This document shows positions 2,166 to 33,465 of a stretch of 40,694 bases of DNA, piece by piece. The stretch's first letter is position 1, and the number at the start of each line of letters is the position of its first letter. The translations under genes were made by a program, and so were the position numbers. The notes beneath the pieces were generated by a model. That model made no database searches, was not told the DNA's origin, and saw nothing but the letters and a program-made list of their open reading frames with translations. This stretch comes from Promethearchaeota archaeon (lineage in GTDB: Archaea > Asgardarchaeota > Lokiarchaeia > Sigyniarchaeales > SOKP01): assembly GCA_030610785.1 (NCBI GenBank), contig JAUWRB010000001.1, positions 1 through 40,694 of the forward strand. The letters run 5' to 3'.

Positions 2166-2422
2166 ATTAAAAATGTAAGTTTTATTACTAATATATTTTT
2201 TAAAAAATTTACATGACTAAAAATATTTTACAATTTAAGATTAAAATAAAATTAGACTGCTTTTTTAATTAAAAAAAAAAATTAAAAATATTTTTTTAGT
2301 AAGAGCTAATTTTTTTTTCTATATACTCTTTATCAATAATCTGATACTACTTATATTTTTAGTGAAAATCGTAAAAGTGTGTGGTTATGCTATGATTATC
2401 ACATATTGAGAAGATAATCTCA

Positions 2423-3349
2423 TTAACCCCCTCCAATTTTTACAATTAATCCCTTTGATTCTAAAAATAGTTTGAATTCTTGTATTTTTTTTTTTTCAGT
2501 AAGAGGAATATTTTTTAACTCATAATTCATACCTAATCGTTCGTATTTTTTTTCAGCTAATCTGTGGTAAGGTAAAATGTGAATTTCAAGAAGAGCTAAT
2601 TTTTTCATTAATTCAGCTAGTTTCGAAAAAAAATTCATGTTATCGTTAATATTCGACACTATTGGAACTCGAATAACAATATTTTTAAATTTATTTTTTA
2701 CAAGTTTTTTTAAATTTGACAGAATAACATCATTAGTAACTCCTGTATATTTCTCATGTTCATCGCTATTTAAAAGTTTTATATCGTAATAAAGAAGATC
2801 AACATTTGGAAGGATCTTCTCAAAGTAATCCCATTTAGCGTGTCCACACGTTTCAATTACAGCATGTATTTTTTCATCTTTACATTTTTTTAAAAAATCA
2901 GCCAAAAATTCAGGTTGGTAAAAAGGTTCTCCACCAGATATTGTAATTCCCCCGCCTGAATTCTCGTAATATAGCGCGTCTTTTTTAACAATATTTAAAA
3001 TCTCGTTTATTGGCATTTTTTTCCCAATTAATTGAATAGCTTGAGCAACACAATTTTTTACACAACTTAAAGAACAATTTGGTACCACGCATTTTTCACG
3101 ATTTATTCTACTAGCTTTTTTAAATTGTATCGCATCATGCTCACAAGCAGTTAAGCATTTTTTACAGCCGATACATTTTTCCTCCAAAAAAATTATATCT
3201 TCTGTTTTTTTCCATGATTCTGGATTTTGACACCATTTGCAGCGTAAAGGACAACCTTTCAAAAAAATTAGCGTTCTAATTCCAGGACCATCATGTACGG
3301 CATAACGTTGGATATCAAAAATTAATCCTTCTAAATTTTTTTCGTTCAT
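2423..3349 (-). CDS. Glycyl-radical enzyme activating protein (radical SAM, PflA/PflC-like family with extra ferredoxin-type clusters)
   Basis: CX3CX2C radical-SAM motif (GCPLRCKWCQNPE) near the N-terminus. Two additional Cys-rich ferredoxin-like motifs (CIGCKKCLTACEHD and CVVPNCSLSCVKNC). GGEP motif (ISGGEPF). It lies 75 nt downstream of the GRE on the same strand. Confidence 0.85.
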   Translation of the reverse strand: MNEKNLEGLIFDIQRYAVHDGPGIRTLIFLKGCPLRCKWCQNPESWKKTEDIIFLEEKCIGCKKCLTACEHDAIQFKKASRINREKCVVPNCSLSCVKNCVAQAIQLIGKKMPINEILNIVKKDALYYENSGGGITISGGEPFYQPEFLADFLKKCKDEKIHAVIETCGHAKWDYFEKILPNVDLLYYDIKLLNSDEHEKYTGVTNDVILSNLKKLVKNKFKNIVIRVPIVSNINDNMNFFSKLAELMKKLALLEIHILPYHRLAEKKYERLGMNYELKNIPLTEKKKIQEFKLFLESKGLIVKIGGG

Positions 3350-3424: not shown

Positions 3425-5806
3425 TTAGCATTCTGTTCTATTAATAATATCTTCTTGTGCCACTTTTGATAATTCTGTAAACAATACAGAATATCCCGCA
3501 ACTCTTACAACCAGATCTCTATATTCATCTGGGTTTTTTTGAGCCTCCAGTAGTATTTCTTTGCCAACAATGTTAAATTGTACTTGAAATCCCCCATTAT
3601 AATTAAAAAATGTTCGAATAAGGGCCGGAAATTTGTCTATTATTAAGGAATTAGGATGAAAAGCTAAGATAAGTGAACTTCCATTAGAAATTAATAGATG
3701 ATCAAGTTTTTTAACCGAATTTAGAACTGCTGTGGGTCCATTTTTATCCATTCCATTAGTGGGACCAAGACCATTTGAGAGGGTATCTCTAGATTTCCTT
3801 CCATTTGCTGATGCCGCTGTAAATACACCAAATGCTAAATGAAAAGTAGTCGATAAGATTCCGGGATTGAATTGACCCCCTCGATTATTTTTATGTTTTA
3901 AAATCTCAGTGCAATATGCTTTTACAACATCAACAGCAATTGAATCAACATAATCGTCATCGTTTCCATATTTTGGAACATTATTAATGAAGATTTGTCT
4001 CCATTCACTTCCTTTTTTTCCTTGATAGGATCCTCTAAAGTTTTTCATGAGCATTTGGACTAAATCTTCAAATGGAAGGAGTTTTTCTTCAAATACCATT
4101 TGTTTTATTACTGCTAGACTATCTGCCACCGTAGCTAAACCAAGTAATTGTGCTCCTGTAAAATTATATATCGCACCTCCCTTAGTAACATCAAGACCGT
4201 TTTCTATGCAATTATCTGTTGTTGCAGATAAAAATGGTTGAGGAGTAAGTTCTGCAATAGCAGTATCGAGAGTATCCATGGTTAAAACCATGTATTTTAT
4301 AAAATATTTCATTTGATTAATGTATGCCTCCCATAGATCTTCGTAAGATGCAATTTCTTTATCATATTTTACACCATAATCAACTCTTGTAAACATGTCA
4401 ATTCCGTTTGTTAACGCTAATTCTAAACACTTTACAAGATTGAGTTGATTTGCGTTTGTTGACCCATACGATTTATATGGATGTTGAGGCTCTACACATC
4501 CAATGGGCGCATATTCTCGAGCATCTTCAAGAGTAAATCCAAGATCTTCTAGACTTTTTACCATTATATCGTCATTAAATAAAGCAATGCTAGATCCTGA
4601 CTTTATTGATTCCCCAACTTTAACAATAAAATCCTCTGGAGTTTTTTCGTGAATTCGAACGGAAAAAGTGGGTTGAACTGTTTTTAGATGAGTATAAGCA
4701 TCTAACATGATATGTGATAATTCTGTCGTTGCGTCATTACCTTTACGATCAAGTCCCCCGATAGTTAGATTTTCTGAGAGCGGAGGTCCTTCAGCAGCTA
4801 TAATGCCTTTGCTAATAACATAATTCCATAACATTGTAAGTTTAATATAAAAGCATTCAATTAAAAATTGAACTTCCTCATCTGAAATCTTTCCTTCACT
4901 TTTATCTTTTAAATAATATGGATACAAATATTGGTCCAATCGGCCAATACTTACTGCGAAACCACCATCTTCTAGACCACATATTAATTGATTAAAATAA
5001 ATGAGTTGAATTGCCTCTTTAAAAGAAGTTGGCAGATTTTCGGAAATATTTCGACAAATCTCAGAAATTTCAATAAGTTCTTTTTTCCGATCAATATTGG
5101 GCTCGTTTTTTGCCTCTCCTTCAGCTAAAAGTGAAAATCGTTGAATAAAATTTTTTACGGCCGTACAAAGAATGATAACAGATTGTAAAAAAACCCTTTT
5201 TTCGGTATCCTCCAAAGAAAAATTTTTTAACCTTTTTTCAGCCTTTTGAATTAAGCCTTTTATTCCATATTTAAAAACATTTTCATGGCCTATTAGGAAA
5301 TGGCCTACACCATTAACAAGCTCTACATCAACAAGAAAAACCAATTTTTCCATCATATTTTTTATATCTGGCTTTAAATATGATTGAAACCTTGCTTGAA
5401 CGGTTTGGTCTTCGTTCTTCCAATATGGAATTAACTCTTTTTTTATATAATCTCTCTCTTCATTAGAAAGGAATAATTTTTGTACTTCACGAGAATCGTA
5501 AGAATCACAATCTTGTTCTATTGTATCGATTCGAACTTCAGGATATAAAGGGGTTCCCATATATTTTGTAGAACGGTTACCGACAATGAATTCGTTGTCC
5601 CAAATAACGATTGTCATGTTTGTTAATAAATCCTCCATGGCTTTCGCAAATCGAATAATGGGATTTTCTCCTTTTGTTTTTTTGTATGATTCTGTAAAAA
5701 ATTTAGCTCTTTCAATACATATTTCATGTGGGTGATTAATTACTTTTTTTTTCATTAATTGAGTACATTTTTTATAATTGGGCTGAGGAATTTGTTCTAA
5801 TACCAT
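3425..5806 (-). CDS. Glycyl radical enzyme, PFL2/dehydratase-like class (single active-site Cys); substrate unknown
   Basis: 793 aa. C-terminal glycyl-radical fingerprint VVRVAGYSVLF (Gly codon at complement of 3494-3496). Active-site loop PIGCVEPQHP has one Cys followed by Glu (Cys codon at complement of 4495-4497). That is typical of the glycerol/diol dehydratase, HypD and CutC-like clade rather than the Cys-Cys of true pyruvate formate-lyase. Confidence 0.85.
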   Translation of the reverse strand: MVLEQIPQPNYKKCTQLMKKKVINHPHEICIERAKFFTESYKKTKGENPIIRFAKAMEDLLTNMTIVIWDNEFIVGNRSTKYMGTPLYPEVRIDTIEQDCDSYDSREVQKLFLSNEERDYIKKELIPYWKNEDQTVQARFQSYLKPDIKNMMEKLVFLVDVELVNGVGHFLIGHENVFKYGIKGLIQKAEKRLKNFSLEDTEKRVFLQSVIILCTAVKNFIQRFSLLAEGEAKNEPNIDRKKELIEISEICRNISENLPTSFKEAIQLIYFNQLICGLEDGGFAVSIGRLDQYLYPYYLKDKSEGKISDEEVQFLIECFYIKLTMLWNYVISKGIIAAEGPPLSENLTIGGLDRKGNDATTELSHIMLDAYTHLKTVQPTFSVRIHEKTPEDFIVKVGESIKSGSSIALFNDDIMVKSLEDLGFTLEDAREYAPIGCVEPQHPYKSYGSTNANQLNLVKCLELALTNGIDMFTRVDYGVKYDKEIASYEDLWEAYINQMKYFIKYMVLTMDTLDTAIAELTPQPFLSATTDNCIENGLDVTKGGAIYNFTGAQLLGLATVADSLAVIKQMVFEEKLLPFEDLVQMLMKNFRGSYQGKKGSEWRQIFINNVPKYGNDDDYVDSIAVDVVKAYCTEILKHKNNRGGQFNPGILSTTFHLAFGVFTAASANGRKSRDTLSNGLGPTNGMDKNGPTAVLNSVKKLDHLLISNGSSLILAFHPNSLIIDKFPALIRTFFNYNGGFQVQFNIVGKEILLEAQKNPDEYRDLVVRVAGYSVLFTELSKVAQEDIINRTEC

Positions 5807-6943: not shown

Positions 6944-9448
6944 GTGGGTAATAATATGGGAGTTTTTCCTGAAAATCCGTGTGAATTTGCGGTTGAATTT
7001 GTTCGAAGGATGAGAAATCATCCAGATATAATTCAGATACCTTCTTCCCGTCAAGTATTATCAATACCTAAATTAATTTTATCAAGATATTATCGTAAAG
7101 GGAATCTTAAACCAATCGATTTTATAGAAATAAGCACTGTTACCTCATTTCCGGATAATCAAAAATTAGCAAAAGATATTGCTTTTGAAATTCTTTTTCC
7201 AAATTATAAGAAAGATTTAATGACTTCATTTTTTGATAAAGATCTTAAACAAAATGATATAGACCCCAATGAATTATTAAAACCTGAAGAAAAATCAGAA
7301 TTAGATCAACTTCAAGATTTAATTGATGAAATCGAAACGTCAAAATCTGTCGATATTGACACTATAAAAGATTTAGAGAAATTTTTTGAAGAATTGAACC
7401 AAAAAAGAGAAGAAGAACCATATAAATCAGCATTAAACTTCTTTGATGATGATACCGAATTGTTTAAAGAAAAAATCACCTCTTTACAAGAATTAATTGA
7501 AGAAGCACGAAAAAGAATGGAACAAAAAATAAATTCCCTTAATCCAAATGATCTAAAAGCAGGCGCTAATTTAGACTTAAATGATTTAATTCAAGAAAAA
7601 TCTCTAAGAGAGTGGGAGAAATTAGCAAGTAAAGCTCTTGCGAATCAAGATATTACTAAAGACTTGGAAAAGTTAATGAATTCCTCCAATTTTGAAGATC
7701 TAATTCAATCAATGAAATTTTTAAATGAAACAAATGCAATATCCCAAAACCAAATGGATCAATTAATACAAGATTTAAAAAAAAAAATTAATAATTTAGA
7801 CCAATTATTTAATGCTGCTAAAAATTTAGGTGAAACTCCTCAATTTAATCAAGAAAAAGTTCTTAAAAATTCTTTACAACAGCATTCGTTTGAACACAAT
7901 TTCAATTTGGCAAACTCGTTAGATCAATATTTTGGTACTAATCTTAGAGGCCAAATGTTGGAAAAATTTAATCAACAACATCAAAACGCTCAAATGAACC
8001 TCTCACTAGAAACTTTAACTAAAGCAGCGTTAGCCAATAAAGCGTGGAATGAACTTTTTAATAAATCACTTCAGAAATCTATTAAAGATGCAATGGCTCA
8101 AAATAAAAGTAATGAGGCTCTTAAATCTCTCACACATCAAATGCAACAACTCATGAACTCTTGTCAAAATATGCATTCTAGTCAAAAAATGGCTCAAAAA
8201 CTTCCTGATCTTATAAAAAAGACTTTAGAATCTTGTGAAACCCCTGAACAATTAAAAAATTCAGTAGAATTCTTAAGAAAAATTGGCCTTCAACCTGAAT
8301 CAGAAGACATTAAAACAGCAGGAAAAAAACTAGAGATGCCTGATGATCAAATTTATGAATTAATTGAACCTAATTATCAATTACTTAAAAAATTAGTTGA
8401 GAAAAAAGCATCAAATTTTGAAAGATTAGAACGTTTAATGAATCAACTTAAAGATCAATTGAATTTTGATCGAATTAAGGAATTAATGGCTAATGCACTT
8501 TCTGCCGATAATAGAGAAGCATTAGGTGCTATGGGCCATTTTGATTTAAATGCTGCGTTAAAAAGTGCTGAACAAATCGGAGGCAAAGAAGGAATGGATA
8601 AAGTTGTTGCTTCACTACAAGCGGGTAGTGGAGAAAATCTTCTTAAACAATGGTTCCTTCATCGAAATAATTTACCTATAAAAGCTAAAGCCAAAGTAAA
8701 AGAATTAGCTAAAAAAATGTTAATTGAAATGGGAATTCATTACTCAAGAGCAAGACTTGGAAGCACTGTTTCTGGACCAATTCCAATAAATTTAGTAAGA
8801 CCATATACTATTGGAGATGATTTTGATAATATAGATTTAGAAGCGACTATTTTCAATTTATTAGAAAAAGGAAAAAAATTGGAGCATATTAATTACGACG
8901 ATTTCTTTGTTAATGAAACAGCAAAGGGCTTGAGAAGTTTGTGTCTTGAGTTAGATATTTCAGGAAGCATGTCTGGAGAAAAACTTTCATCAATGGCTAT
9001 TGCAGTGACAATGATTGTCTATAGTTTAAAGAAAGATGAATTAGCAATAACTTTTTTCGAATCTGACTTACATGTATTAAAAGAAATGAAAAAAAGTGTT
9101 AATTTAGAAGAACTAGCCGATGAATTGTTATCAGTAACAGCTAAAGGCGGTACAAGAGTCCAAGGTGCTCTTGAATGGGCAAGAGAACAATTTAAACGAG
9201 CAGATTCAAGAGATAAGTTGAATATTTTATTTACTGATGCGGAACTTTACGATCTTAACGAAGCAATAGAACAACTACGAATTTTCCGGTCTATGGGCGT
9301 TCATTTTATTTTAGTTTGTCCAGGCCAGTCATATAACCTTAAAGAAGCAACAAAAATGGTAAAAATTGCAGGCGGTCAATTAATGACAGTAGATAATTGG
9401 GAAGAATTTCCAAGCATGATTTCTGATATTATTAATTCAATGTTTTGA
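6944..9448 (+). CDS. von Willebrand factor A (vWA) domain protein with a long Q/N/K/E-rich helical N-terminal region
   Basis: C-terminal vWA domain with a complete-looking MIDAS: LDISGSMSG (DxSxS, 8954-8968), TAKGGT, LFTDAE. The GTG start is 9 nt after the MoxR stop (an alternative ATG is at 6956). About 600 aa of predicted coiled-coil/low-complexity sequence lies upstream of the vWA domain. Confidence 0.75.
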   Translation: MGNNMGVFPENPCEFAVEFVRRMRNHPDIIQIPSSRQVLSIPKLILSRYYRKGNLKPIDFIEISTVTSFPDNQKLAKDIAFEILFPNYKKDLMTSFFDKDLKQNDIDPNELLKPEEKSELDQLQDLIDEIETSKSVDIDTIKDLEKFFEELNQKREEEPYKSALNFFDDDTELFKEKITSLQELIEEARKRMEQKINSLNPNDLKAGANLDLNDLIQEKSLREWEKLASKALANQDITKDLEKLMNSSNFEDLIQSMKFLNETNAISQNQMDQLIQDLKKKINNLDQLFNAAKNLGETPQFNQEKVLKNSLQQHSFEHNFNLANSLDQYFGTNLRGQMLEKFNQQHQNAQMNLSLETLTKAALANKAWNELFNKSLQKSIKDAMAQNKSNEALKSLTHQMQQLMNSCQNMHSSQKMAQKLPDLIKKTLESCETPEQLKNSVEFLRKIGLQPESEDIKTAGKKLEMPDDQIYELIEPNYQLLKKLVEKKASNFERLERLMNQLKDQLNFDRIKELMANALSADNREALGAMGHFDLNAALKSAEQIGGKEGMDKVVASLQAGSGENLLKQWFLHRNNLPIKAKAKVKELAKKMLIEMGIHYSRARLGSTVSGPIPINLVRPYTIGDDFDNIDLEATIFNLLEKGKKLEHINYDDFFVNETAKGLRSLCLELDISGSMSGEKLSSMAIAVTMIVYSLKKDELAITFFESDLHVLKEMKKSVNLEELADELLSVTAKGGTRVQGALEWAREQFKRADSRDKLNILFTDAELYDLNEAIEQLRIFRSMGVHFILVCPGQSYNLKEATKMVKIAGGQLMTVDNWEEFPSMISDIINSMF

Positions 9449-9474
9449 ACTATATAAAATCAATATAAAAAAAA

Positions 9475-11826
9475 ATGTCTTTTACATCTCTATCGGAACT
9501 ATTAATAAAAATATTTGGAGAAAAATTATATAAACAATCAGTTAAATTTCCAAATAATAAAATAAACATTATTTCAATAAAAGTAGAGCCTATAAAAATC
9601 AGAACTATAATTCTCGATAACGATCGAGAGTATCACCTCATAATTAATCAAAAGAAAGCAGAAATATTCCACGATTGCCCTAATTTTTTAATTCATTCTT
9701 CAAGGGAAGATAAAATTTGCATTCATTTCTTAAAATTATTAATATTAATTAAAAAAGAACTTGCTATTAAAATTATAGAAGAATTTGAGAAATACTCACT
9801 TACTTCAGAGGATTTTGGCTCAAAAAAGAAAAGCAAAAATTATTTATTATTAGCTAATGCTTGTTTTGAGACAAATAATTATGTTGAAGGTTTAAGTTAT
9901 TTAAGTAAGGCAATAATTAACCAAAGCGAATGTAAAGTAATTGTTGAAAAATTTTTAAGAGTAGCAATAGATAGAAATTTATTCATAGAATTTTTCGAGT
10001 TTTTAAAATCATGCCATGAAAACGAGTTAGACCAATATATAATTGAATTTAACGATGATATAGAAAAAGGGTTTAAAAAATTTCTAAATACGGTCTCTGA
10101 TTACTCATTTTTTAGTATACTTAGAATTAATAAATCACTAAATAAGATTTTCAAATTTAAAGATATTTCGTTTATTGTATCTTTAATTGACAAATTTAAT
10201 AAAATGGTAAATAGTTCCAATTTTAATGAAAGATATTTTTCTATTTATTTTATTAAAACCAATATAGAACTGTCTAAAGAATTAAATCGAGCATTTTGCG
10301 ATATAATTTCTGGAAATCAATTAGATAAATTAAAAGAGGAATTATTAATTTATTTTTTTACTGAAATCGATAATTTTTGCTTGATTGACAAATTAAAGTT
10401 ATTGAAAAAGCAATTTGACGTATTAGATATTCCTAAAGATAAATATCATGATATATATAAGAAATATAAAAATGAAATAAAAGAATTAGAAAAAAAAGTT
10501 TATCTTAAGAAATTTTCTTTTTTAAATTTATTAATGGAGAAATATAACATAAAAAGAACTAAAGGTGATTTTAGAAAAAAAAGAAACACATATTTTATAA
10601 ATCATGACCAAGAAAATTTAGAAAATCCCGTTTATAATTATATTTTATCTCGTATTGGTTTTTTTGGAATAAATGAAACAACAATTAAATCATCCGAAAT
10701 TGGAATTAATTATCTTATTATAAAAGAATTATTTTTAGATGATTTAAGCACACTACCTGATGTTTTTTACTACAAAAAACAATTTTGGGGAGAAACATGC
10801 GATTTTAAAATCAATCCTCTTAATGGTTTTTCTTTAATGAGCGAAAATATGCGTTATAATTACGAGATAGACCAAAAATATTCAAACATAAATGATTTAA
10901 TGATTATAGAATGGGATTTAGCAAATAAACCAATTCAAGGATGCCTCGTTAATGCATATGGTTCTCAAATAATCATACCTGATCCAAATAACCCTCTTTT
11001 TGACGATTTAAAACCATTTGATACATGTTATTGTATTAGAACTCCTGTAAAAATCGAAGGAAATAACGTGAAAACAATTAATGTTTTAACCAAATGTTCT
11101 TTTAAAGATGTGATTAAAAGTATTTCTAAAGGAATGACCTTCATAGAAGGCTTTTATCCTTTTTCTCTGATAAGAGCCGTATTAGATAAAGAAATAAGTC
11201 CATTTGAAGCCAATGAAATTGTTGTAAATAATCCAAATAAAATATTTATTCCTAATTATAACAAGTTTGTTGAAACTTTCAGAAATTTTCTATTTAAATT
11301 CATTCATAAAGAAAAGGATTATATTTTCGAAGAAATGAAGAATAATCCCGGGAAAAAAATTAATCAAATTTTAATTTTAATGAATTTGTTGAACGAATTA
11401 TCTGGATTGAATTTACCATTTTTAGAAATAACTGAAAAATTATTTAATCAAAATATTAATCTGAATGAATTCAAATTAAAATTTCTAAGCGAAATACATT
11501 CATGCATAAAAAAAATACTTAATAAACGAGAAATGGGCAGTACTATTATTTTTAACTTAAAAAAGCTTCGTAACACGCCTTTTTTTAAATACTCTAATCA
11601 AATTCTTGAAATTAGAAAATCAGAGTTTGAATCTATAAAGGTTTATAAATTTAAAGATATACATAATGTTTCAGAACTTCAAAAAACTTATTATGGCAAG
11701 CAATTTTTAAAAATTCTAAATGTAGGTTTAAACCCAACTGTTAAACCTGATGTTTTTAAAAAAATTTCTGATTTTGCCACTAAATTAAAACTTAATTTGA
11801 ATGTCATAAAATCTGAATTTACTTGA
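9475..11826 (+). CDS. Large uncharacterised protein with an N-terminal SWIM-like zinc-finger motif
   Basis: The segment EYHLIINQKKAEIFHDCPNFLIHSSREDKICIHFLKLL (H66..H84, nt 9670-9726) matches the SWIM pattern CxCPxF...x(n)...CxH, with the first Cys replaced by His. The rest (~690 aa) is K/N/I-rich with no motif I recognise. It lies 26 nt downstream of the vWA gene. Confidence 0.45.
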   Translation: MSFTSLSELLIKIFGEKLYKQSVKFPNNKINIISIKVEPIKIRTIILDNDREYHLIINQKKAEIFHDCPNFLIHSSREDKICIHFLKLLILIKKELAIKIIEEFEKYSLTSEDFGSKKKSKNYLLLANACFETNNYVEGLSYLSKAIINQSECKVIVEKFLRVAIDRNLFIEFFEFLKSCHENELDQYIIEFNDDIEKGFKKFLNTVSDYSFFSILRINKSLNKIFKFKDISFIVSLIDKFNKMVNSSNFNERYFSIYFIKTNIELSKELNRAFCDIISGNQLDKLKEELLIYFFTEIDNFCLIDKLKLLKKQFDVLDIPKDKYHDIYKKYKNEIKELEKKVYLKKFSFLNLLMEKYNIKRTKGDFRKKRNTYFINHDQENLENPVYNYILSRIGFFGINETTIKSSEIGINYLIIKELFLDDLSTLPDVFYYKKQFWGETCDFKINPLNGFSLMSENMRYNYEIDQKYSNINDLMIIEWDLANKPIQGCLVNAYGSQIIIPDPNNPLFDDLKPFDTCYCIRTPVKIEGNNVKTINVLTKCSFKDVIKSISKGMTFIEGFYPFSLIRAVLDKEISPFEANEIVVNNPNKIFIPNYNKFVETFRNFLFKFIHKEKDYIFEEMKNNPGKKINQILILMNLLNELSGLNLPFLEITEKLFNQNINLNEFKLKFLSEIHSCIKKILNKREMGSTIIFNLKKLRNTPFFKYSNQILEIRKSEFESIKVYKFKDIHNVSELQKTYYGKQFLKILNVGLNPTVKPDVFKKISDFATKLKLNLNVIKSEFT

Positions 11827-24390: not shown

Positions 24391-27300
24391 GTGAAGATTT
24401 TGATCTTAGATGTTTTATTTATAATTATCTTTCTAGCGTTTTTTCTATTTGGTTTTTTTATTATTTATAAGCAAGTAGCTTTAGTCAAAAAGGGGGAATT
24501 TAACGTTAGTGATCGACTTCAATGTATTATTTACGGAATTATATTTAGTATAGCGCTAATGGTTGTTATAGCCATGGCTTTCATATTTGCTGTACAAACC
24601 CCGGAATTCTGGGAAAATAGTTCATTCCCCCCTCCAGATATAAACCCTCTTGCTCTAATAATTCCTTTTATAATATGCTTGGCTTACATATCTTTTTATC
24701 CTTTAATTGATTTTTTATTCATTGCTGTAAGTGAAGAATCAGATGAAGGACTCACCCCATTTCATAAATTAATAGGAAATAAAGTCATTAATATCTCAAA
24801 AAGTAAATATGGTTCAGTAATCATGGCCATACTGTTATATTGTTTATTTATTATACCTCCTGTTTTACTATCACTCTTAGGATTTTCATTCTTAATGATA
24901 TTTATCTCCTGGATGCTCGTTTATCCAATGATGATATTAACTTTTTATGGTTCTAAAGGTTATATTGCAGGAATTTCAAATTGCTATTATAACATCCCGG
25001 ATATAAGGAGATCAATTTTTCTTAATTTTGAAGATAGTAAAAGGGGAATGAAACAGTTTGCTTCAAATCCCGCATCTTATATCGTTTTCGGTTTAATGAT
25101 ATTTGTTTTTATATGGGCTTGGATTTCTATGATTCAAACCATCACTTTTTTTTTCACAGGAAAAATCGCGATTTCAACTATGACATCGGTATTTGTTTTT
25201 GTAACGCTTTTTTTTGGAATTATGGGATATTTCACCCGATTTTGGGGGAGAAAAATAAAGTATCGCGGGATAGATATTTATTTTGCCGCTTATTTAATGG
25301 CCGCTATTGGTATTAATGTCTTAGTGAATTTTTTAATCGTTAATCCCAATAAATTATTTGATACTTTTAATATGTGGGATTTTACAGACCAAATCATTCC
25401 AAATTATAGAATGTTTGCTTGGGCCGCAGTTATTGAGGAAATTATTTTAATTATCTTCACATCTTATTTCTTTCTAGCAAAAAAAAACAAATTTATAAGA
25501 AATATTAAGTATTCCCGAATAACTGAATGTGGAAATATCTTTAATCCAATTCCCCTATTCAACTTTATAAAAAATAAAAATCTTATTATCAGAAAACACG
25601 CCGAAGAAACACTAATTTTAATGTTTGAAAGAATTCCTCTAAAAGCTAAAATTGATTTAAACAAATTAAAATTTAAATATTTTTTATTTGATGCTTTATG
25701 TGATTATCACTCTAACGCAAGAAGAATTAGCTATAACATTCTCCTTCAATTAGAAAAGGATGTCCCCGATATTGTATTACCGTGGATAATTGAAGGTATA
25801 ACATCTCCTAACTACGATAAAAGCATTCCTATTGCTAGATCTTTATTAAAATCTGAGATAAGCCTTTTAGAAAATATCCCTGAAAATGCAATATTTTCTC
25901 TTATTGAAGACCCAGAATGGAGATTAAAACAATATGGATTAATGATTTTGTCCCGTCTCGTACATAAAAAAAACGATTTAATTTTAAATTTAAATATTCA
26001 TGAATTAGTTAATGACTCTAATAGCAAAGTACAAGTGGAAATTTTAAATTTACTTTCAGAATCTTCAATAGAACTTCCTGTACATGTTATTATTAAAAAA
26101 ATAAATCATTCAAATAAGGAGATTAGAGCTGCTGCAATTAAGAATGTAAAAAACATTAAAATTGAAAATATTGATTCTCAAATAATCAATATACTCTTAC
26201 CATTAATGAAAGACCCTACTAGTTCTGTTAGAGCTTCAATTTTTGAAGTTTTTGCTAAAATAGGAAATTTTAAGAAATTTTCTATCCCCATTTCACCTTT
26301 CTTAGATGGTTTAACTGATTATAACGAAAATGTAAGATCTTTTTCGGTTTTAGCACTTGAGAAATACTCTGATGAGGAACCAGGCAGTATAAATCTTGAT
26401 GTGATTATAAATAAAATTGACCCTAATAATAATGAAGTATTAAGTAGCGTATTGTCCCTGCTTGGTAGATTATGGGAAAAAAATCCTGAAAAAATCATAA
26501 CGATTTTCTTAATATTCATTAAGTTTGATAATGAAAAATTAAAAAAAAATATCTCAAAAATTCTTGTTGAAAAATATCAATCTCACCCAGACTTAATAAT
26601 TCAAAACTTAATTAACATTTCTGATGTCTCTAAATTCATTTCAAAAGGAATTATTTCAACGACAATTATAAAAATTGCTAAAGCAGACCCACAGAATATG
26701 ATTCCTAAATTAATTATATATTTAAATTCAAATAACGAAGATATCGTATTAAACGCAATTTCTTCTTTAGATGGATTAATAGACGAATTTTTTGAGATGA
26801 TTAGCATTAAACCGCTACTTTCATTGATGCAAAAAGATATGAATAATCAAATAAAAAAAGAAGCTTCAAAGCTCATTTCAAAAATAGCTAAAACAAATCC
26901 TTTCTCTATTAAACCTTTTATTCCATTAATTTTTCAAATTGTAAACGACCAAGAACAATCCGTTAAAATTGTGTTATCTAAATCAATATTAGAAATAGCT
27001 AAAACTTCTCCAGAGCTCATCCCTGTTAGGTCCATTATCCCGTTTTTTTCAGATCAAGATTCTTTTATTCGTGAATCTGGTGCAAAAATTCTAGGCTTTA
27101 TTGGATTTGAATTAGTTGACGAAGTTATTGATGTATTAATAAATAAAGGACTAACTGACGAAGAATGGATAGTAAGAGAAGCTTCAGTAGCTAGTTTAGG
27201 AAAGATTGTTGAACATGTGGAGAATAAGGAATTTATAATAAAAAAACTCGTCTATTTATTGGATGATGACCAAAATTGGGTTCGAAGATCAGCCATGAAT

Positions 27301-27747
27301 ATTTTATCTAATATTAAAGAAGTGACTGCTTCACAAATACCTTTTGAGAAAGTTGCAAGTAATTTGACAAGTTCTGATCCTAAAGTTAGAGAAGGATCAG
27401 TTGGATTGCTAAAAATTTATAGCTTTATTAACATCGATAGAGTTTTTGACGATATCCTAACTCTTTTAGGCGATGATTCTGAAGTTGTTAGAAAAAAAAT
27501 GATTAATACCACTGTTGAAATAATTAATAAAATTGGTTTATCTAAGATTTTATCTAAACTTTTAAAAAATTTAAGCGATGAAGGTTCTTTAGAAACACAA
27601 CAATCAATTGCCCTAATCCTAAGAAGAACTGCGAAATATGAAGATAAAAAAATCAAGAAAAGAATAATTTCTTTGCTCAAGATAAGATGTGAGATGAGTC
27701 AAGACCCGATCATATGTCAAACTCTGCAAGAATTGAGAGAGAGTTAA
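24391..27747 (+). CDS. Polytopic membrane domain (~370 aa) fused to a long HEAT/ARM-repeat region (~750 aa)
   Basis: GTG start. The N-terminal third contains many hydrophobic 20-25 aa stretches (for example ILILDVLFIIIFLAFFLFGFFIIY, IIYGIIFSIALMVVIAMAFIFAV). The remainder contains at least 10 repeats with the HEAT signature Dxxxx[VI]R...A...L (DPEWRLKQYGLMILSRL, NKEIRAAAIKNV, DPTSSVRASIFEVFAKIG, NENVRSFSVLALEKY, DSFIRESGAKILGFIG, EEWIVREASVASLGKI, DQNWVRRSAMNILSNI, DPKVREGSVGLLKIY, DSEVVRKKMINT). Confidence 0.7.
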   Translation: MKILILDVLFIIIFLAFFLFGFFIIYKQVALVKKGEFNVSDRLQCIIYGIIFSIALMVVIAMAFIFAVQTPEFWENSSFPPPDINPLALIIPFIICLAYISFYPLIDFLFIAVSEESDEGLTPFHKLIGNKVINISKSKYGSVIMAILLYCLFIIPPVLLSLLGFSFLMIFISWMLVYPMMILTFYGSKGYIAGISNCYYNIPDIRRSIFLNFEDSKRGMKQFASNPASYIVFGLMIFVFIWAWISMIQTITFFFTGKIAISTMTSVFVFVTLFFGIMGYFTRFWGRKIKYRGIDIYFAAYLMAAIGINVLVNFLIVNPNKLFDTFNMWDFTDQIIPNYRMFAWAAVIEEIILIIFTSYFFLAKKNKFIRNIKYSRITECGNIFNPIPLFNFIKNKNLIIRKHAEETLILMFERIPLKAKIDLNKLKFKYFLFDALCDYHSNARRISYNILLQLEKDVPDIVLPWIIEGITSPNYDKSIPIARSLLKSEISLLENIPENAIFSLIEDPEWRLKQYGLMILSRLVHKKNDLILNLNIHELVNDSNSKVQVEILNLLSESSIELPVHVIIKKINHSNKEIRAAAIKNVKNIKIENIDSQIINILLPLMKDPTSSVRASIFEVFAKIGNFKKFSIPISPFLDGLTDYNENVRSFSVLALEKYSDEEPGSINLDVIINKIDPNNNEVLSSVLSLLGRLWEKNPEKIITIFLIFIKFDNEKLKKNISKILVEKYQSHPDLIIQNLINISDVSKFISKGIISTTIIKIAKADPQNMIPKLIIYLNSNNEDIVLNAISSLDGLIDEFFEMISIKPLLSLMQKDMNNQIKKEASKLISKIAKTNPFSIKPFIPLIFQIVNDQEQSVKIVLSKSILEIAKTSPELIPVRSIIPFFSDQDSFIRESGAKILGFIGFELVDEVIDVLINKGLTDEEWIVREASVASLGKIVEHVENKEFIIKKLVYLLDDDQNWVRRSAMNILSNIKEVTASQIPFEKVASNLTSSDPKVREGSVGLLKIYSFINIDRVFDDILTLLGDDSEVVRKKMINTTVEIINKIGLSKILSKLLKNLSDEGSLETQQSIALILRRTAKYEDKKIKKRIISLLKIRCEMSQDPIICQTLQELRES

Positions 27748-27934: not shown

Positions 27935-30256
27935 TTGCCAATTAGTAAAGTGCAGAAGTTCGAAGATTTTTATAGAATGTTTCAAGAAAAACCTGGTGTT
28001 TATAAGTATCAAAATCAAATTAATGATATTTTTTCAAAAGGCGATAACGCGCTTTTAATTTTTTACGAGGATTTATTAACTTTTGATTTTCAATTAGCTG
28101 ATATGCTAAAAAATGACCCTGTTTCTCTTTTAGAGGATGCTATTGATGCCTTTAAAAACATATTAAAATTTCAAAGTGGAAAATTAAATATTCAAGATTA
28201 TTTTGTTAGAATAACGACCAAAGACGACCAAAGTCCTTTATCAATTCCTTTAAGGAGGCTAAGAGCAAAAAATATAGATAAATTAATTTGGTCTAAAGGC
28301 ATATTAATTAGAAGTTCTACAATTAGACCAAAATTAATGAACGCAACTTTCGAATGCATGGTTTGTGGATCCCAATTTCAAGTGCTTCAGCTTACTTCAA
28401 GAATAAAATGGCCACAATTTTGTGTTAATAACCGATGCAAAGCTAAAACACAATCTGATTTTAGGCTTATTTCAAAAAATTCAGAATTCATTGACTGGCA
28501 AAGCATAGTGATTCAAGAAATTCCTGAAGATCTACCAGCTGGAAGAATTCCGAGATCAATTCAAGCGATATTAACTTATGATTTAGTTGATACTGTAAAA
28601 CCAGGAGATAGAATAAAGATTATGGGGATCTTTAAGTCTGTTTTAGCCCAATCAACTAAAAGTATTAATTCTAATATATTTAGGACTTTTGTAGATGTCA
28701 CTTTTATTGATCCTGAAGATAAAAGCGAAGGAGACATGGATCTTTCTAAGGAAGAAATAAAAAAAATAGAAGAAAAGTCGAAGGAACCATTTATACAAAA
28801 AAAAATTGCTCGGTCAATTGCCCCTACCATTTACGGAAGGGACGATCTAAAAATGGCATGCGCTTTAAGTTTATTTAGCGGAACAAGGAGAAAAAAACCG
28901 GGAGGAAATTATAAACGAGGTGATATCCACATTTTATTTGTAGGAGATCCTGGGACGGGTAAGTCAGAAATCCTGAAAAGTACAATAGATGTGTCTCCAA
29001 GAGGCTTATATACTTCAGGAAAAGGTGCGTCTGCAGTTGGTTTAACTGCGGCCGTTATTAAAGATACTGAAACGGGTCAAATGAATCTCGAAGCCGGAGC
29101 AATTGTTCTAGCTAACGGAGGCATTGCTGCTATTGATGAATTTGATAAAATGGATACCGCAGATAGATCTGCATTGCACGAAGCAATGGAACAACAATCT
29201 TATCATTATAATACGGAAATTTTAACAACAAATGGCGAAAGAATCGTTATTGGTAAGTTCATTGATGACTTTATCGCTACTAATAAATCTAAAGTCATTC
29301 AAGGAAAGAATTGTGAAATTTTGCCATTTAATAATCTAGAAATTTATTCAACAAATTTCAATAAAATTTACAAGACAAAAATAAATAGAATTAGCCGTCA
29401 TGAAGCGCCAAGTTGTTTTTATAAATTAACATTTACTAATGGTAGATCAATTAATATCACGCCTGAACATCCTATTTTTGTTTTTAATAAAGGGAAATTA
29501 AGATGTAAGAATGCTGAAAAATGTTCAATCAATGAATTTATTCCCGTCCCTAAATACCTTCCTAATTCAAGTAAAATAATAAAACTAAGAAAAAACGAAA
29601 ATATTCAACACATTTTATTTAAAGAAGTCGTATTTCCAGAAGATTTAACACCAAAATTAAGCAGAATACTTGGTTATTTTATAACAAATAAACTAAGTAA
29701 TGAAGGTTCTGGACCTGAATTTTATTATTCTAATAAGGATAATCTTGTTGTAGAAGAATTTAATCGTCTAATATTTGAATTATTTAATATATCTCCTTCT
29801 AAAAAAGAAAGAAACGATGGTTTGATAAGATTAAATTATATTTCTATAGAGTTATGTAATTGGATGAAAACGAATTTTCCTGAGATAATGATAATTTCAA
29901 AAAGTAAAAGAATTCCTTCGAAAGTACTTGGTTGTGACGTTGAAAATGCTAGAGAATTTTTAATTAGTGCTTTTAAAAGTGATGGTTATATAAACTCTAC
30001 TTCGGCATGTATTAAAGCGGCATCAAAGGGTCTTAGCAATGATTATCAAGATTTGTTATTAAAACTAGGAATTCATTCTTATATTGTATTGGATAAAAGA
30101 AATGATTTGTATAAGGTTTATATTCGTGGTCAATCAATAATTAAATTTTGCGATGAAATATTTGAAAAAAATGATCATGGAAACGAAGAAATTAATAATC
30201 TAATAAATTTGAATCTAAAAAAACACATCGTCCTGAAATTTTACCTACTTCTTTAA
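27935..30256 (+). CDS. mcm: MCM replicative helicase, N-terminal extein (27935-29197) plus the N-terminal part of the intein, ending at a frame break
   Basis: TTG start (uncertain). C4 zinc motif CMVCGSQF...CVNNRC. Walker A GDPGTGKSE. Walker B AAIDEFDKM. ALHEAMEQQ is followed directly by intein block A (SYHYNTEILTTNGE) instead of the canonical TVSIAKAG. Confidence 0.85.
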   Translation: MPISKVQKFEDFYRMFQEKPGVYKYQNQINDIFSKGDNALLIFYEDLLTFDFQLADMLKNDPVSLLEDAIDAFKNILKFQSGKLNIQDYFVRITTKDDQSPLSIPLRRLRAKNIDKLIWSKGILIRSSTIRPKLMNATFECMVCGSQFQVLQLTSRIKWPQFCVNNRCKAKTQSDFRLISKNSEFIDWQSIVIQEIPEDLPAGRIPRSIQAILTYDLVDTVKPGDRIKIMGIFKSVLAQSTKSINSNIFRTFVDVTFIDPEDKSEGDMDLSKEEIKKIEEKSKEPFIQKKIARSIAPTIYGRDDLKMACALSLFSGTRRKKPGGNYKRGDIHILFVGDPGTGKSEILKSTIDVSPRGLYTSGKGASAVGLTAAVIKDTETGQMNLEAGAIVLANGGIAAIDEFDKMDTADRSALHEAMEQQSYHYNTEILTTNGERIVIGKFIDDFIATNKSKVIQGKNCEILPFNNLEIYSTNFNKIYKTKINRISRHEAPSCFYKLTFTNGRSINITPEHPIFVFNKGKLRCKNAEKCSINEFIPVPKYLPNSSKIIKLRKNENIQHILFKEVVFPEDLTPKLSRILGYFITNKLSNEGSGPEFYYSNKDNLVVEEFNRLIFELFNISPSKKERNDGLIRLNYISIELCNWMKTNFPEIMIISKSKRIPSKVLGCDVENAREFLISAFKSDGYINSTSACIKAASKGLSNDYQDLLLKLGIHSYIVLDKRNDLYKVYIRGQSIIKFCDEIFEKNDHGNEEINNLINLNLKKHIVLKFYLLL

Positions 30257-30768
30257 TTGAAACTATAATTAAAATCAAAAAAGATTTAGACATCCCTTAC
30301 AATGGATATTTTAACCTCCAATTAAAAAAAAATAATGGTATAACTCGTAATGTTCTCTCGAATGAATTGAATATAATTAAAAAAAAAATAACTTTAATAG
30401 AAAATCAAATTAACAAGATCCTTACTATTTCAGAAATTAGGAAAAAAATAAAATATTCTCAAAAAAAATTAGCTATAATCTCAGGATTCACGAGACGTGA
30501 AATTGATTTTTATGAAAGGGGCTACTATAATAAGAATAAAAGAAATGTTATTAAAACAATATTAATCTCATCTATTAAAAATAAAATTGAAGATATTAGA
30601 AAAAATATCAGATCCGTAGACTATATTAAAGATTCAGATATTTTATGGGATCGAATAATTAGTATTGAAATTATTCAAAATAAAGCAAAGAGTTATACTC
30701 CTTGGGTTTATGATTTAACTGTCGAACCTAATCACACATTTATTGGTCAAGGAGTTGTTTTACATAAT
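29198..30768 (+). mobile_element. Intein (~524 codons) with a LAGLIDADG homing-endonuclease domain, inserted in MCM between EAMEQQ and TVSIAKAG
   Basis: Block A starts with Ser1 (tct at 29198). Block B is NITPEHPIFV (TxxH). LAGLIDADG-like blocks are LSRILGYFITNKLSNEGSG and EFLISAFKSDGYI. Blocks F/G are VYDLTVEPNHTFIGQGVVLHN, followed by Thr+1 (acc at 30769). Removing the intein restores the canonical MCM sequence EAMEQQ|TVSIAKAGI. Confidence 0.8.
30217..30223 (+). other. A7 tract in A_AAA_AAA phase at the MCM/intein frame break: candidate -1 recoding site, or a homopolymer indel
   Basis: The upstream frame reads CTA AAA AAA CAC and stops at 30254-30256. The downstream (MCM C-terminal) frame is open from 30199. 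The two frames overlap only across 30199-30256, and this A7 is the only obvious slippery element there. A -1 shift, or an eighth A, fuses both parts. Confidence 0.35.
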
Positions 30769-31614
30769 ACCGTAAGCATTGCAAAAGCAGGAATTGTTGC
30801 CACATTGAAAGCTCAGACGGCCATAATAGCTGCAGCAAATCCGCATTCTGGCAGATACGATAGATATAAAACAGCTACTCAAAATATTAAATTGCCGCCG
30901 GCCTTATTATCACGTTTTGATTTAATTTTTGTTGTTGTAGATCGACCTGATCCATCTGAAGACGCACAAATGGCAGAATTTATACTACAAAATTCCATGA
31001 AAGGTACTGAAGATGATTCACTAATGCTAGATATGAAAGACGAAGGTATGACCCCTATTTCTAGAGATCTTCTTAAAAAATATATAAGGTATGCCAGAAG
31101 AACTTGTCATCCTATTTTAACCGAAGAGGCTAAAGAAAGAATAAAGGAATTTTATTTAAAATTAAGGGGTCAATATGATAGTGAGGATGCGATCATTTCT
31201 ATTCTAGCGAGGAATTTGGACGCGTTAATTAGATTAAGTGAAGCTCATGCGAAAATGGCTTTAAGAGATAAAGTTACTAAAGAAGATGTTGAAGATATCA
31301 TTATATTATTTAAACGATACCTTAAAGATACCGGTTATGACGATTCTACGGGAAAGATTGATATGGACCGACTTTTCATTGGTGATTCGAGAAGTAATCT
31401 TAACAAGCTTGAAAAATTTTTAACCCGAATAAAAGAAATTTTTGAAGAAAATAATTTTAACGCTCTTGAAAAGATGAATATTGTCCAAATTCTAGATCTT
31501 GAAGAAGATTTCGATAAAAAATACATTGAAAAAGCTTTAAAAGATCTAATTACTGATGGAACCTTATATGAACCGAAATTCGGGCTAATTAAATTCGCTA
31601 GTAAAGATGATTAA
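30367..31614 (+). CDS. mcm: C-terminal part of the intein (to 30768) plus the MCM C-terminal extein (30769-31614). The frame is open upstream to 30199, so the TTG at 30367 is probably not a real start
   Basis: After VVLHN the sequence continues TVSIAKAGIVATLKAQTAIIAAANP (sensor 1), LLSRFDLIF (arginine finger), then LDALIRLSEAHAKMALRDKVT and a C-terminal winged-helix-like tail. These are typical of MCM. Confidence 0.85.
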   Translation: MNIIKKKITLIENQINKILTISEIRKKIKYSQKKLAIISGFTRREIDFYERGYYNKNKRNVIKTILISSIKNKIEDIRKNIRSVDYIKDSDILWDRIISIEIIQNKAKSYTPWVYDLTVEPNHTFIGQGVVLHNTVSIAKAGIVATLKAQTAIIAAANPHSGRYDRYKTATQNIKLPPALLSRFDLIFVVVDRPDPSEDAQMAEFILQNSMKGTEDDSLMLDMKDEGMTPISRDLLKKYIRYARRTCHPILTEEAKERIKEFYLKLRGQYDSEDAIISILARNLDALIRLSEAHAKMALRDKVTKEDVEDIIILFKRYLKDTGYDDSTGKIDMDRLFIGDSRSNLNKLEKFLTRIKEIFEENNFNALEKMNIVQILDLEEDFDKKYIEKALKDLITDGTLYEPKFGLIKFASKDD

Positions 31615-31717: not shown

Positions 31718-32521
31718 TTAAATCCATTCACATTGAGTAATTCCCGCATCTTTTAAAAAGCCTATCTTACTCCAGTGATCTATAAGTCTATTAACGAATT
31801 TCTTAACATTAAAGTCAATTAAATCATGATCTATCTTTAATGTTTTAATACTTCGAATGACTATAATCAAATTCCTTTTCTTCTTCTTTAAATTCCTTTT
31901 AATTAATTCTCTCTCATGATTATATCCTTTTTGAAATTCTTCATCGTAAAAATCTATATATTTGTGTTTTAAATAATCTTTGAATCCCAAATATGTTTTA
32001 TGTAAATTTTCAAAACACCGACCAAAATCAATTCGACATAATGAGTTATCTTCCCGTATAATGAAATGTCGATCATAGACATCATATAAAGATAAGATCT
32101 CGTGTAGATAACATTGTCTTCCTAAAATAAATTTATATTTTGAAATTTTATGTTTCCCTACATTATCTCCTTTTTCAAATGTCGTTATAATGTAAGGAAT
32201 AGCGGTTTTTTTTTTTTTGTATAATCCTGTTAAATAATTTTTGAAACATAATTGAGGGTCAAAAAAAGATCTAGTTAGATGGAGTCCTAATATTTCAAAA
32301 ATGAATTTTTCTCTCACGTATTTTATAAAAAGTAAAGGTTCTCTATTTAGAGAAAAGATAGTCCATTTTTTATAATATGACCAAGTGCATTTTAATAAAA
32401 ATTCTTTTTCTAAAGGAAAATTTAATATTTCAGCACATTTTAATATTTCATTTTCAGAAATTTCAGAAATTGAATGCCAATTGAATATTTTCTTCAAAAT
32501 TTCTATATTTTGAGGATTCAA
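31718..32521 (-). CDS. Small (267 aa) protein with a PI3K/PI4K-like catalytic-core signature (atypical kinase-like)
   Basis: EILSLYDVYDRHFIIREDNSLCRIDFGRCFEN aligns by eye with the PI3K/PI4K segment ILGIGDRHxxNIMvkxxGxLFHIDFGhxl. DRH is at complement of 32066-32074 and IDFG at complement of 32011-32022. Upstream, LLFIKYVREKFIFEILGL resembles the IFKxGDDLRQDxLxLQ lysine/helix region. The Asn of DRHxxN is missing (apparent 3-residue deletion). Confidence 0.45.
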   Translation of the reverse strand: MNPQNIEILKKIFNWHSISEISENEILKCAEILNFPLEKEFLLKCTWSYYKKWTIFSLNREPLLFIKYVREKFIFEILGLHLTRSFFDPQLCFKNYLTGLYKKKKTAIPYIITTFEKGDNVGKHKISKYKFILGRQCYLHEILSLYDVYDRHFIIREDNSLCRIDFGRCFENLHKTYLGFKDYLKHKYIDFYDEEFQKGYNHERELIKRNLKKKKRNLIIVIRSIKTLKIDHDLIDFNVKKFVNRLIDHWSKIGFLKDAGITQCEWI

Positions 32522-32622
32522 TGTAAATATTTTTTAATTTCATTAAATATTAAAATAAACCTTTAATAATTAATCTCGTTTATGATAATTAAAAGTATTT
32601 AAAATAGAAAATAGTCGCAATA

Positions 32623-33465
32623 ATGCCCTCTAGGTTTTTTAATGTAATTGAAAGATATTCTACAGAAAATATTATTGACTTACTTAGAGATGTCGAGAAA
32701 ATATTTGATGGTGAAAAAAACCTAATAAAAATAATTAAAGGTGCTACTTTAATTGTTGGCGATCTTCATGGAGATCTTAATACTTTACAAAAAATAATCC
32801 AATTATTTTTTCGTGATGAATTTAAAACTCTTTTATTCTTAGGAGATTATGTTGATAGGGGCGCTAAACAGGTTGAAGTAGTTAATGTTTTGTTTTATTA
32901 TAAAAGATTGATGCCGGATAGGTTAATATTATTACGCGGAAATCACGAAGATCCAATAATTAACCGTCAATATGGATTTTATGACGAAGTAAGACTTAAA
33001 TTTTCCAATTATAAAGAAATTTTTCGACGCTATAATCACGTATTTTCAAAATTACCATTAGCAGCACTCACGTGGAATAGAATTTTTTGCGTTCATGGCG
33101 GGATTTCTGAAGGATTAGAAAATATTGAAGAAATAAATTTATTGTTAAAAAATCAAGAACAGATTAATTGTCCAATCACAAAACAACTAGTTTGGAACGA
33201 TCCAAAAGAAAAAGTTAAAAATTTTAAAAAAAGTTCTAGAGGGCCAGGAATCAAGAATTTCGGTAAGGAGGCGTTAGAAAAATTTATACAGGAAAATTCG
33301 ATATCCTATATTATAAGGTCTCATGAGAAATTTAAAAATGGATATCATAAATATTTTGACGATAAATTATTAAGTATTTTCTCTTCTCGTTCGTATTCTA
33401 AAAATGTTTCTACTGTTGTTGGAGTAATAGACTTAAACGGAAATGTTGATGTTATCCCGATTTAA
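32623..33465 (+). CDS. PPP-family Ser/Thr protein phosphatase (PP1/PP2A-like, 'PP1-arch' type)
   Basis: Canonical PPP motifs in order: GDLHGD, GDYVDRG, LRGNHE, VHGG, IIRSHE. 280 aa. Confidence 0.85.
   Translation: MPSRFFNVIERYSTENIIDLLRDVEKIFDGEKNLIKIIKGATLIVGDLHGDLNTLQKIIQLFFRDEFKTLLFLGDYVDRGAKQVEVVNVLFYYKRLMPDRLILLRGNHEDPIINRQYGFYDEVRLKFSNYKEIFRRYNHVFSKLPLAALTWNRIFCVHGGISEGLENIEEINLLLKNQEQINCPITKQLVWNDPKEKVKNFKKSSRGPGIKNFGKEALEKFIQENSISYIIRSHEKFKNGYHKYFDDKLLSIFSSRSYSKNVSTVVGVIDLNGNVDVIPI

Follow-up and report, generated by a model that had tools for sequence, protein, structure and literature searches.

Phosphatidylinositol 3- and 4-kinases (PI3Ks and PI4Ks), together with the PIKKs, which are PI3K-fold enzymes acting on proteins, and the phosphatases of the PPP family are pillars of eukaryotic signalling. 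Among prokaryotic proteins, the DUF4135 domain of LanM dehydratases and the N-terminus of Legionella LepB have a lipid-kinase-like fold, and the small kinases RIO and Bud32, members of the protein-kinase-like (PKL) superfamily that keep a D-x4-N catalytic loop, are universal in archaea and eukaryotes. One study, in which no dedicated kinase neighbour of these enzymes is mentioned, argues for an origin of the eukaryotic PPPs from those of Asgard archaea (PMC8249667). In the searchable literature we found no Asgard PI3K-like kinase, Asgard kinome survey or kinase/PPP gene pair, and no proposal of a prokaryotic ancestor for the PI3K/PI4K fold. Here we describe a gene for a protein of 267 amino acids (aa) and its divergent neighbour, a PPP phosphatase gene, in a 40,694-nucleotide (nt) stretch of DNA from a Promethearchaeota archaeon (Lokiarchaeia; assembly GCA_030610785.1, contig JAUWRB010000001.1, positions 1 to 40,694; this whole stretch is hereafter called the window). 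A preliminary description made from the sequence had proposed that the 267-aa protein is a minimal, stand-alone PI3K/PI4K-like kinase core. We suggest that it is a catalytically competent minimal ATP-dependent PKL phosphotransferase of a new family confined to Loki-type Asgard archaea, and that it acts as the kinase in a reversible, two-gene phosphorylation switch shared with the PP1-like phosphatase, a reading whose chances we judge to be about even. What is new is a PKL family that combines a D-x4-His catalytic loop, a minimal architecture, restriction to Loki-type archaea and a PPP partner.

Single-sequence searches with the 267-aa protein gave zero matches in Pfam, NCBIfam and PDB sequences. 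A word-seeded search of 5.8 billion proteins detected 38 clusters at 50-69% identity, all unnamed or annotated as 'hypothetical' and without a Pfam domain, the named sources being metagenome-assembled genomes (MAGs) of Promethearchaeota, Lokiarchaeota or Hermodarchaeota. By exhaustive HMMER search of 1.84 billion cluster representatives, 21 representatives were found at E<=1e-3, including relatives of 26-38% identity, and those with named sources were again from Promethearchaeota. Iterating the search of the 5.8 billion proteins with a 47-sequence profile yielded 46 clusters, all of them family members, and reached no bridge to an annotated family, including any PI3K/PI4K. When one genome was scanned for each GTDB species, 11 loci were identified, all in Promethearchaeota/Hermodarchaeota MAGs or in unclassified MAGs labelled 'uncultured archaeon'. 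The family is therefore very small, lineage-restricted and confined to Loki-type Asgard archaea, and the phyletic distribution that the preliminary description had wished to see examined is archaeal and specifically Asgard/Promethearchaeota. One candidate for a distant multidomain relative, P0057 (540 aa), was discarded as a repeat protein with a spurious match. Homologs share the start position of the 267-aa protein.

An AlphaFold2 model of the protein, built from a 35-sequence alignment (predicted local distance difference test (pLDDT) 93.5, predicted TM-score (pTM) 0.91), is certain to represent a bilobal PKL fold as far as prediction goes. The model starts with two N-terminal helices, three strands, an alphaC-like helix (73-85), strands 96-101 and 108-114 and the hinge, which are followed by an alphaE-like helix (126-143), a loop, short strands at 153-155 and 161-163 and four to five C-terminal helices. 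All features of a bilobal PKL protein are thus present in the AlphaFold2 models and Foldseek comparisons, namely a beta-rich, here five-stranded, N-lobe with alphaC, a hinge and a helical C-lobe, ending in a helical bundle, with the catalytic and metal-binding loops. The beta1-beta2 turn reads WSYYKKW and forms no Gly-rich loop, the activation segment is very short, and the APE/alphaF/DxWxxG signature is absent. Within the C-terminal three-helix region (residues 186-262; 31736-31966, minus strand), the family profiles gave a weak match to alpha-spectrin repeats (E 0.0085-0.03), which probably reflects helical or compositional similarity.

Comparison of this model with the PDB by Foldseek gave 293 kinase matches at E<=1e-3, the best 50 of which were nearly all class I PI3Ks (gamma, delta, beta and alpha) and Vps34 (E 3e-6 to 6e-5, query-normalised TM-score (TMq) 0.40-0.50); ordinary protein kinases appeared from rank 20 on, beginning with FGFR2 (TMq 0.34). 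The earlier idea of a minimal stand-alone kinase core in an archaeon is borne out by the model and the Asgard source, and the closest solved structures are indeed PI3K catalytic subunits (E 3e-6, TMq up to 0.50). To see whether the PI3K likeness is a property of the family, a 27%-identical member (P0050) was modelled on the basis of another alignment (pLDDT 90.4), and Foldseek then gave 272 PDB kinase matches at E<=1e-3. Its E-values (2e-5 to 2e-4) intermix Eph kinases, PI4KIIalpha, Vps34, YabT, APH(2''), PknG, Rio2, Bud32 and PI3Kgamma. Among the best 50 of these 272 matches, the highest TM-scores belong to PI4KIIalpha (0.54), PI3Kgamma (0.47 and 0.45) and Vps34 (0.43-0.45), followed by YabT (0.39), APH (0.32-0.38), ordinary protein kinases (0.26-0.34) and Rio2/Bud32 (~0.28). 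In a viral structure library, giant-virus PI3Ks likewise ranked above viral Ser/Thr kinases in TM-score. PI3K/PI4K structures, among them p110gamma (3apd/1e8x), Vps34 (2x6h) and PI4KIIalpha (4hnd), are thus the best global match for both models (TMq 0.43-0.54; top values 0.50 and 0.54 vs at most 0.39 for others among the best 50 matches each), yet the TM-scores are borderline and the root-mean-square deviation (RMSD) is 7-10 Å. The status of PI3K/PI4K as nearest structural neighbours of the predicted fold is therefore consistent across models but marginal.

Alignment of 47 family members, down to 27% identity, reveals that K67, E76, G118, G134, L143, L145, Y146, D147, R151, H152, R163, D165, Y177, G199 and W250 are invariant, and the family motif may be written as L-Y-D147-x-x-x-R-H152 ... 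R-I-D165-[FYL]-G. D147, H152 and D165 show the canonical +5/+18 spacing, exactly that of D166/N171/D184 in PKA and of the D/N/D set in PI3K; D147 and D165 are 18 residues apart with a hydrophobic strand before DFG, and R-I-D-[FYL]-G aligns to HIDFG of PI3K without gaps. A gap-free register that assigns D147 as the catalytic Asp, H152 to the Asn position and D165 as the DFG Asp was chosen by HMMER against PI3Kbeta (4bfr), and also by hhalign against trimmed genuine PF00454 fragments, a full-length giant-virus PI3K, PKA and CDK2. The preliminary description had instead matched a DRH triplet, with D150 as its Asp, residue for residue to PI3K at the cost of a 3-residue gap. This register was rejected, as every alignment method returned the gap-free one and position 150 is variable: close homologs carry D or E there, and distant members L, Y, P, E, W or I; the true invariant Asp, D147, lies three residues upstream. 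Since D150 is not conserved, 'DRH' is a coincidence of one subfamily and the 3-residue gap an artefact. Hence, when conservation of the two proposed motifs is considered, the Asp of DFG (D165) is invariant while that of DRH is not, and the G-D-R-H-x-x-N catalytic loop of PI3K/PI4K is not found in the family.

The residue set expected of a PKL enzyme is nevertheless present: a Lys on beta3, a Glu on alphaC, a catalytic Asp, a +5 ligand and the DFG Asp, with His and not Asn at the +5 position. Each of these invariant catalytic residues falls on the expected secondary-structure element of the AlphaFold2 model. Accordingly, the Mg-binding Asn that had been reported as missing is replaced, at the same position, by the invariant H152. 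Other parts of the earlier account hold: the strings YDRHFIIREDNSLCRIDFGRCFEN, LLFIKYVREKFIFEILGL and IPYIITTFEKG all occur in the protein, the ATP-binding Lys corresponds to the invariant K67 on beta-strand 62-68, and the IPYIITT strand precedes the hinge with the invariant G118. Retention of the K67/E76/D147/H152/D165 set to 27% identity argues for catalysis and makes the pseudokinase suggested previously unlikely. Judged from its sequence, the active site looks intact.

The structural matches could also be taken to mean that the family is a highly diverged member or a sister of the PI3K/PI4K lipid kinases which phosphorylates the head group of a membrane lipid, inositol-containing or otherwise (e.g., archaetidylinositol), although we regard this as unlikely. 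In addition to the dominance of PI3Ks among the Foldseek matches of the 267-aa protein, the highest TM-scores of P0050 (PI4KIIalpha, PI3Kgamma and Vps34) and the ranking of giant-virus PI3Ks above viral Ser/Thr kinases, the protein shares with PI3K/PI4K a bilobal fold without a Gly-rich loop (a loop that PI3Ks lack), an invariant Lys carried by an N-lobe strand and an I-D-F-G motif that follows the catalytic Asp at a distance of 18 residues. Local profile similarity was also observed over the catalytic/activation segment: hhalign comparison of the family profile with the PF00454 core block gave a score of 24.3 (P 0.003), above 60/60 column shuffles (mean 12.7, standard deviation 2.7, maximum 20.9). 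Weak Pfam matches of family members point in the same direction, including the lipid-kinase-like DUF4135 (2 members, best E 0.007) and LepB_N (1 member, E 0.08); these and PIP49_C (E 0.073) are at noise level, those to DUF4135 and LepB_N far below gathering thresholds, and the DUF4135 and PIP49_C matches fall on the catalytic-loop/DFG segment. However, the proteins that carry the LanM and LepB domains are much larger, multidomain and found in other genomic contexts.

Control comparisons argue that the sequence similarity is not specific to PI3K. With single sequences as hhalign targets of the 47-sequence family, the score was 20.1 for a genuine PI3K kinase domain (P 0.055, 34 columns), whereas PKA-Calpha reached 25.1 (P 0.011, 68 columns, running from beta5/hinge via alphaE (YLHE/YLHS) to DFG) and CDK2 25.5 (P 0.008). 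The PKA and CDK2 sequences were confirmed to be identical to PDB chains, and the full-domain PI3K comparison was confined to single sequences, the database having given exon-sized PI3K fragments only. A 774-aa Vps34-like PI3K with canonical motifs, encoded at 725-3049 (plus strand) of a 272-kb IMG/VR giant-virus contig (L021), was used as a control sequence. Sequence motifs were therefore dismissed as PI3K-specific evidence, and the resemblance at the motif level is generic to the PKL superfamily; with PKA and CDK2 scoring no worse than PI3K against the family profile, it is the structure that leans toward PI3K/PI4K. The HMMER comparison with PF00454 envisaged in the preliminary description failed to link the protein to that family: the 267-aa protein had no match in a Pfam scan even at E<=10, none of the 26 family members scanned matched it (distant members were rescanned with the same outcome), and family profiles searched against the PDB gave sub-threshold kinase matches only (PI3Kbeta E 0.92, LegK4 1.1-1.2, Fes 2.2). 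Of the proposed archaeal PI3K/PI4K identity, a borderline structural likeness stands, but sequence membership and a PI3K-specific profile similarity do not. Further differences are the catalytic loop itself (D-x3-R-H with His for Asn, vs D-R-H-x2-N in PI3K), the stand-alone size of 267 aa without helical, C2 or Ras-binding domains, the very short activation segment, the failure of P0050 E-values to separate PI3K/PI4K from Eph, APH, RIO and Bud32, and the fact that the partner of the family is a protein phosphatase and not a lipid phosphatase.

The protein was also compared with other branches of the superfamily. It shares the fold and the K/E/D/(+5)/D(+18) set with eukaryotic-type protein kinases (PF00069; PKA, CDK2, Eph and FGFR), and a Ser/Thr phosphatase would be the natural antagonist of a Ser/Thr kinase of this type. 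Unlike these kinases, the family has LYD in place of HRD and no GxGxxG or APE/alphaF/DxWxxG, its global TM-scores to them are lower (0.26-0.34), and neither the 267-aa protein nor the 26 members scanned match the Pkinase model of Pfam. RIO and Bud32 resemble it in being small stand-alone archaeal PKL kinases that lack a classical activation loop and have a shortened C-lobe, and both are among the Foldseek matches; however, TMq is only ~0.28, and the family is distinguished from them by D-x4-H and its confinement to Promethearchaeota. The small size and the missing APE/alphaF signature, both typical of small-molecule kinases, and the presence of APH(2'') among the top matches of P0050 (TMq 0.32-0.38) might suggest a kinase of the APH, choline-kinase or fructosamine-kinase type that acts on a metabolite, cofactor or antibiotic-like substrate, the phosphatase being adjacent by chance. 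This appears improbable: the TM-scores are below those of PI3K/PI4K, the APH, Choline_kinase and Fructosamin_kin models of Pfam were not matched by the 267-aa protein or the 26 members, and the family has no conserved metabolic operon partner, its sole conserved neighbour being the protein phosphatase.

This neighbour encodes a 280-aa protein in which the motifs GDLHGD, GDYVDRG, GNHE, HGG, RG and SHE are all present. It matches the Pfam Metallophos model (1.3e-29) and aligns along the full catalytic domain with human PP1alpha/beta, calcineurin and PP2A (E ~1e-39 to 3e-42; PP1 ~3e-42, residues 24-260). All metal and phosphate ligands are conserved throughout six orthologs, with D47, H49, D75, R79, N107, H108, H158, R206 and H234 unchanged, as expected for a PPP enzyme, and in its complete motif set and PP1 similarity the protein resembles the archaeal/Asgard 'EukaryoticPPP-like' phosphatases (PP1-arch).

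The positions of the two genes and of their main elements are listed below. The Lys-rich beta4-beta5 loop that holds the A13 run differs in length among homologs in two family alignments. As described previously, the run encodes KKKK (K102-K105), to which it adds the first base of a Thr codon; A-runs are common in the window because its G+C content is ~29%.

Table. Features of the kinase-like gene and its phosphatase partner, in window coordinates.
Feature	Position	Strand	Evidence
Kinase-fold coding sequence, 267 aa, TTG start	31718..32521	-	Open reading frame (ORF) and translation, AlphaFold2 model, Foldseek, 46 Asgard homolog clusters
Partner gene, 280-aa PPP-family (PP1/PP2A/PP2B-like) Ser/Thr phosphatase	32623..33465	+	Pfam, PP1 similarity, motifs
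AT-rich intergenic region (101 bp) between the divergent genes; presumed bidirectional promoter region	32522..32622	.	Spacing comparison
A13 homopolymer (K102-K105), beta4-beta5 loop	32206..32218	-	Sequence; loop indels in alignments
K67 codon, invariant, presumed ATP-anchoring Lys, third N-lobe strand (FIKYVRE)	32321..32323	-	Conservation and model strand 62-68
E76 codon, invariant Glu at the start of alphaC-like helix 73-85, presumed salt-bridge partner of K67	32294..32296	-	Conservation and model
Catalytic loop to DFG, residues 145-167 (LYD147-VYD-R151-H152-FII...R163-I-D165-FG)	32021..32089	-	Conservation and gap-free alignments

By combining the window with loci retrieved by exact-protein lookup and with species-representative genomes, 18 distinct genomic contexts of the kinase-like gene were compiled; in 15 of these, the gene is transcribed divergently from an adjacent PPP ortholog. 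A partial match was found in a further one (L013), where only the last ~50 phosphatase residues are detectable (3747-3899), overlapping the start of the kinase-like gene; the locus may have been rearranged or truncated, or the assembly may be faulty here. The pairing is kept in four relatives of 29-37% identity (L005, L006, L007 and L009), at which all other neighbours differ (KduI/eIF2gamma, proteasome/DUF2110, SSF/POR and a glycyl-radical enzyme), and in close relatives VIT1, rubrerythrin and AFOR are variably present around the pair. PPP identity drops alongside kinase identity, from 61-73% at close loci to 39-43% at distant ones. The spacing between the two genes is ~81-124 bp at close loci and widens to ~200-340 bp at distant loci; no clear conserved regulatory element was found in these intergenic regions, where only AT-rich, TATA-like T/A runs recur. 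The pair lies among housekeeping genes, and neither the kinase-like protein nor the phosphatase matched a defence-system model of PADLOC, which led us to reject a role in defence. At the distant locus L007, a gene encoding a fusion of Roadblock/LC7 with an Arf/Ras/Roc small GTPase (9008-9961, minus strand) is located 3 kb from the pair; eukaryote-like small GTPases of this kind have been described from Asgard archaea.

Such tight and conserved pairing could also be expected if the protein were a pseudokinase or an ATP-binding regulatory subunit that docks on and controls the phosphatase without transferring phosphate, by analogy with the regulatory subunits of eukaryotic PP1/PP2A. The replacement of the metal-binding Asn by His and the lack of a Gly-rich loop would fit such a role, as would a C-terminal [RK]-I-x-F (residues 252-255) that resembles the RVxF motif in the close subfamily, though it is very degenerate. 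Nevertheless, we consider this quite unlikely, as a pseudokinase would not be expected to keep K67, E76, D147, H152 and D165 invariant to 27% identity, distant members retain the RVxF-like motif only in part, and two members have no phosphatase neighbour. In the 267-aa protein the motif reads K-I-G-F (31757-31768, minus strand), just after W250, and resembles the RVxF motif for PP1 docking; at this site distant members have R-E-V-D-F, R-V-V-D-W or nothing comparable. Given this degeneracy, that it might serve for docking on the phosphatase partner is only an idea.

The near-constant divergent pairing with a PP1-like phosphatase makes the kinase half of a reversible phosphorylation switch the most likely role of the protein. 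In this proposed mechanism, K67, held by E76, would position the phosphates of ATP, D147 would serve as catalytic base, the metal ions would be bound by D165 of DFG together with H152, which stands where Asn is usual, and the invariant R151, R163 and Y177 may line the substrate or phosphate site. The kinase and the phosphatase would then act on a shared protein substrate, and possibly on each other. The identity of the partner points to phosphorylation of protein rather than lipid, and the role may most simply be that of a protein Ser/Thr kinase; given the precedent of the PIKKs, the structural lean toward PI3K is compatible with a protein-phosphatase partner. We thus infer catalytic activity, a protein (Ser/Thr) substrate and functional coupling with the phosphatase.

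Several observations weigh against this interpretation. The best structural neighbours of the predicted models are lipid kinases and not protein kinases, the Gly-rich loop is absent, and the unusual His in place of Asn, which to our knowledge is the standard residue of no characterised PKL family, could modify phosphotransfer or prevent it altogether. Synteny is broad among closely related Lokiarchaeial genomes, and pairing among close homologs alone would be weak evidence, so that the pairing argument rests on the four distant loci. In addition, two members lack a phosphatase neighbour, namely those at L008 (5001-5810) and L020 (3956-4846), which are 35-36% identical to the 267-aa protein and 32% to each other. 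L008 instead has an unannotated divergent gene for a 215-aa protein, which was rejected as a diverged phosphatase (hhalign P 0.36, no Pfam match). All catalytic residues are kept in the aligned L008 protein (P0068), and the L020 sequence, read outside the alignment, contains K, D-x4-H and D-L-G. At L020, an upstream short-chain dehydrogenase gene is split into two ORFs.

Among other genes of the window, one at 27935-31614 (plus strand) encodes an MCM helicase with an intein (splicing domains, LAGLIDADG endonuclease and helix-turn-helix) inserted at ...HEAMEQQ|S...VVLHN|TVSIAKAG. The gene is interrupted, its two ORFs lying in different frames. As the second of these frames is already open from ~30160, a 1-nt indel at an A-run near 30195-30215 would rejoin them into one ORF of the kind seen at L001 and L003, where the homologs (1136/1367 aa) are intact; the break reflects either an assembly error in a homopolymer or a genuine frameshift within the endonuclease part of the intein. 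A 1118-aa repeat protein of HEAT/adaptin/condensin-Cnd1-like type, which has a eukaryotic flavour, is encoded at 24391-27747 (plus strand) and is syntenic upstream of MCM in related Lokiarchaeial loci.

It is conceivable that the family represents an archaeal, stand-alone relative of the ancestral core of PI3K/PI4K/PIKK, found only in Loki-type archaea and coupled to a PPP lineage that is putatively ancestral to PP1/PP2A, and that the pair is thus a primordial signalling module from before eukaryogenesis, although we think this rather unlikely. Even a conservative reading adds an uncharacterised kinase family and a kinase/phosphatase pair, both now annotated only as 'hypothetical', to the Asgard repertoire. 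The pair also allows the function of a D-x4-His kinase active site to be asked, and a small Asgard-restricted kinase with a PP1-like phosphatase offers a clonable pair with which to ask whether eukaryote-style reversible phosphorylation predates eukaryotes in their archaeal ancestor.

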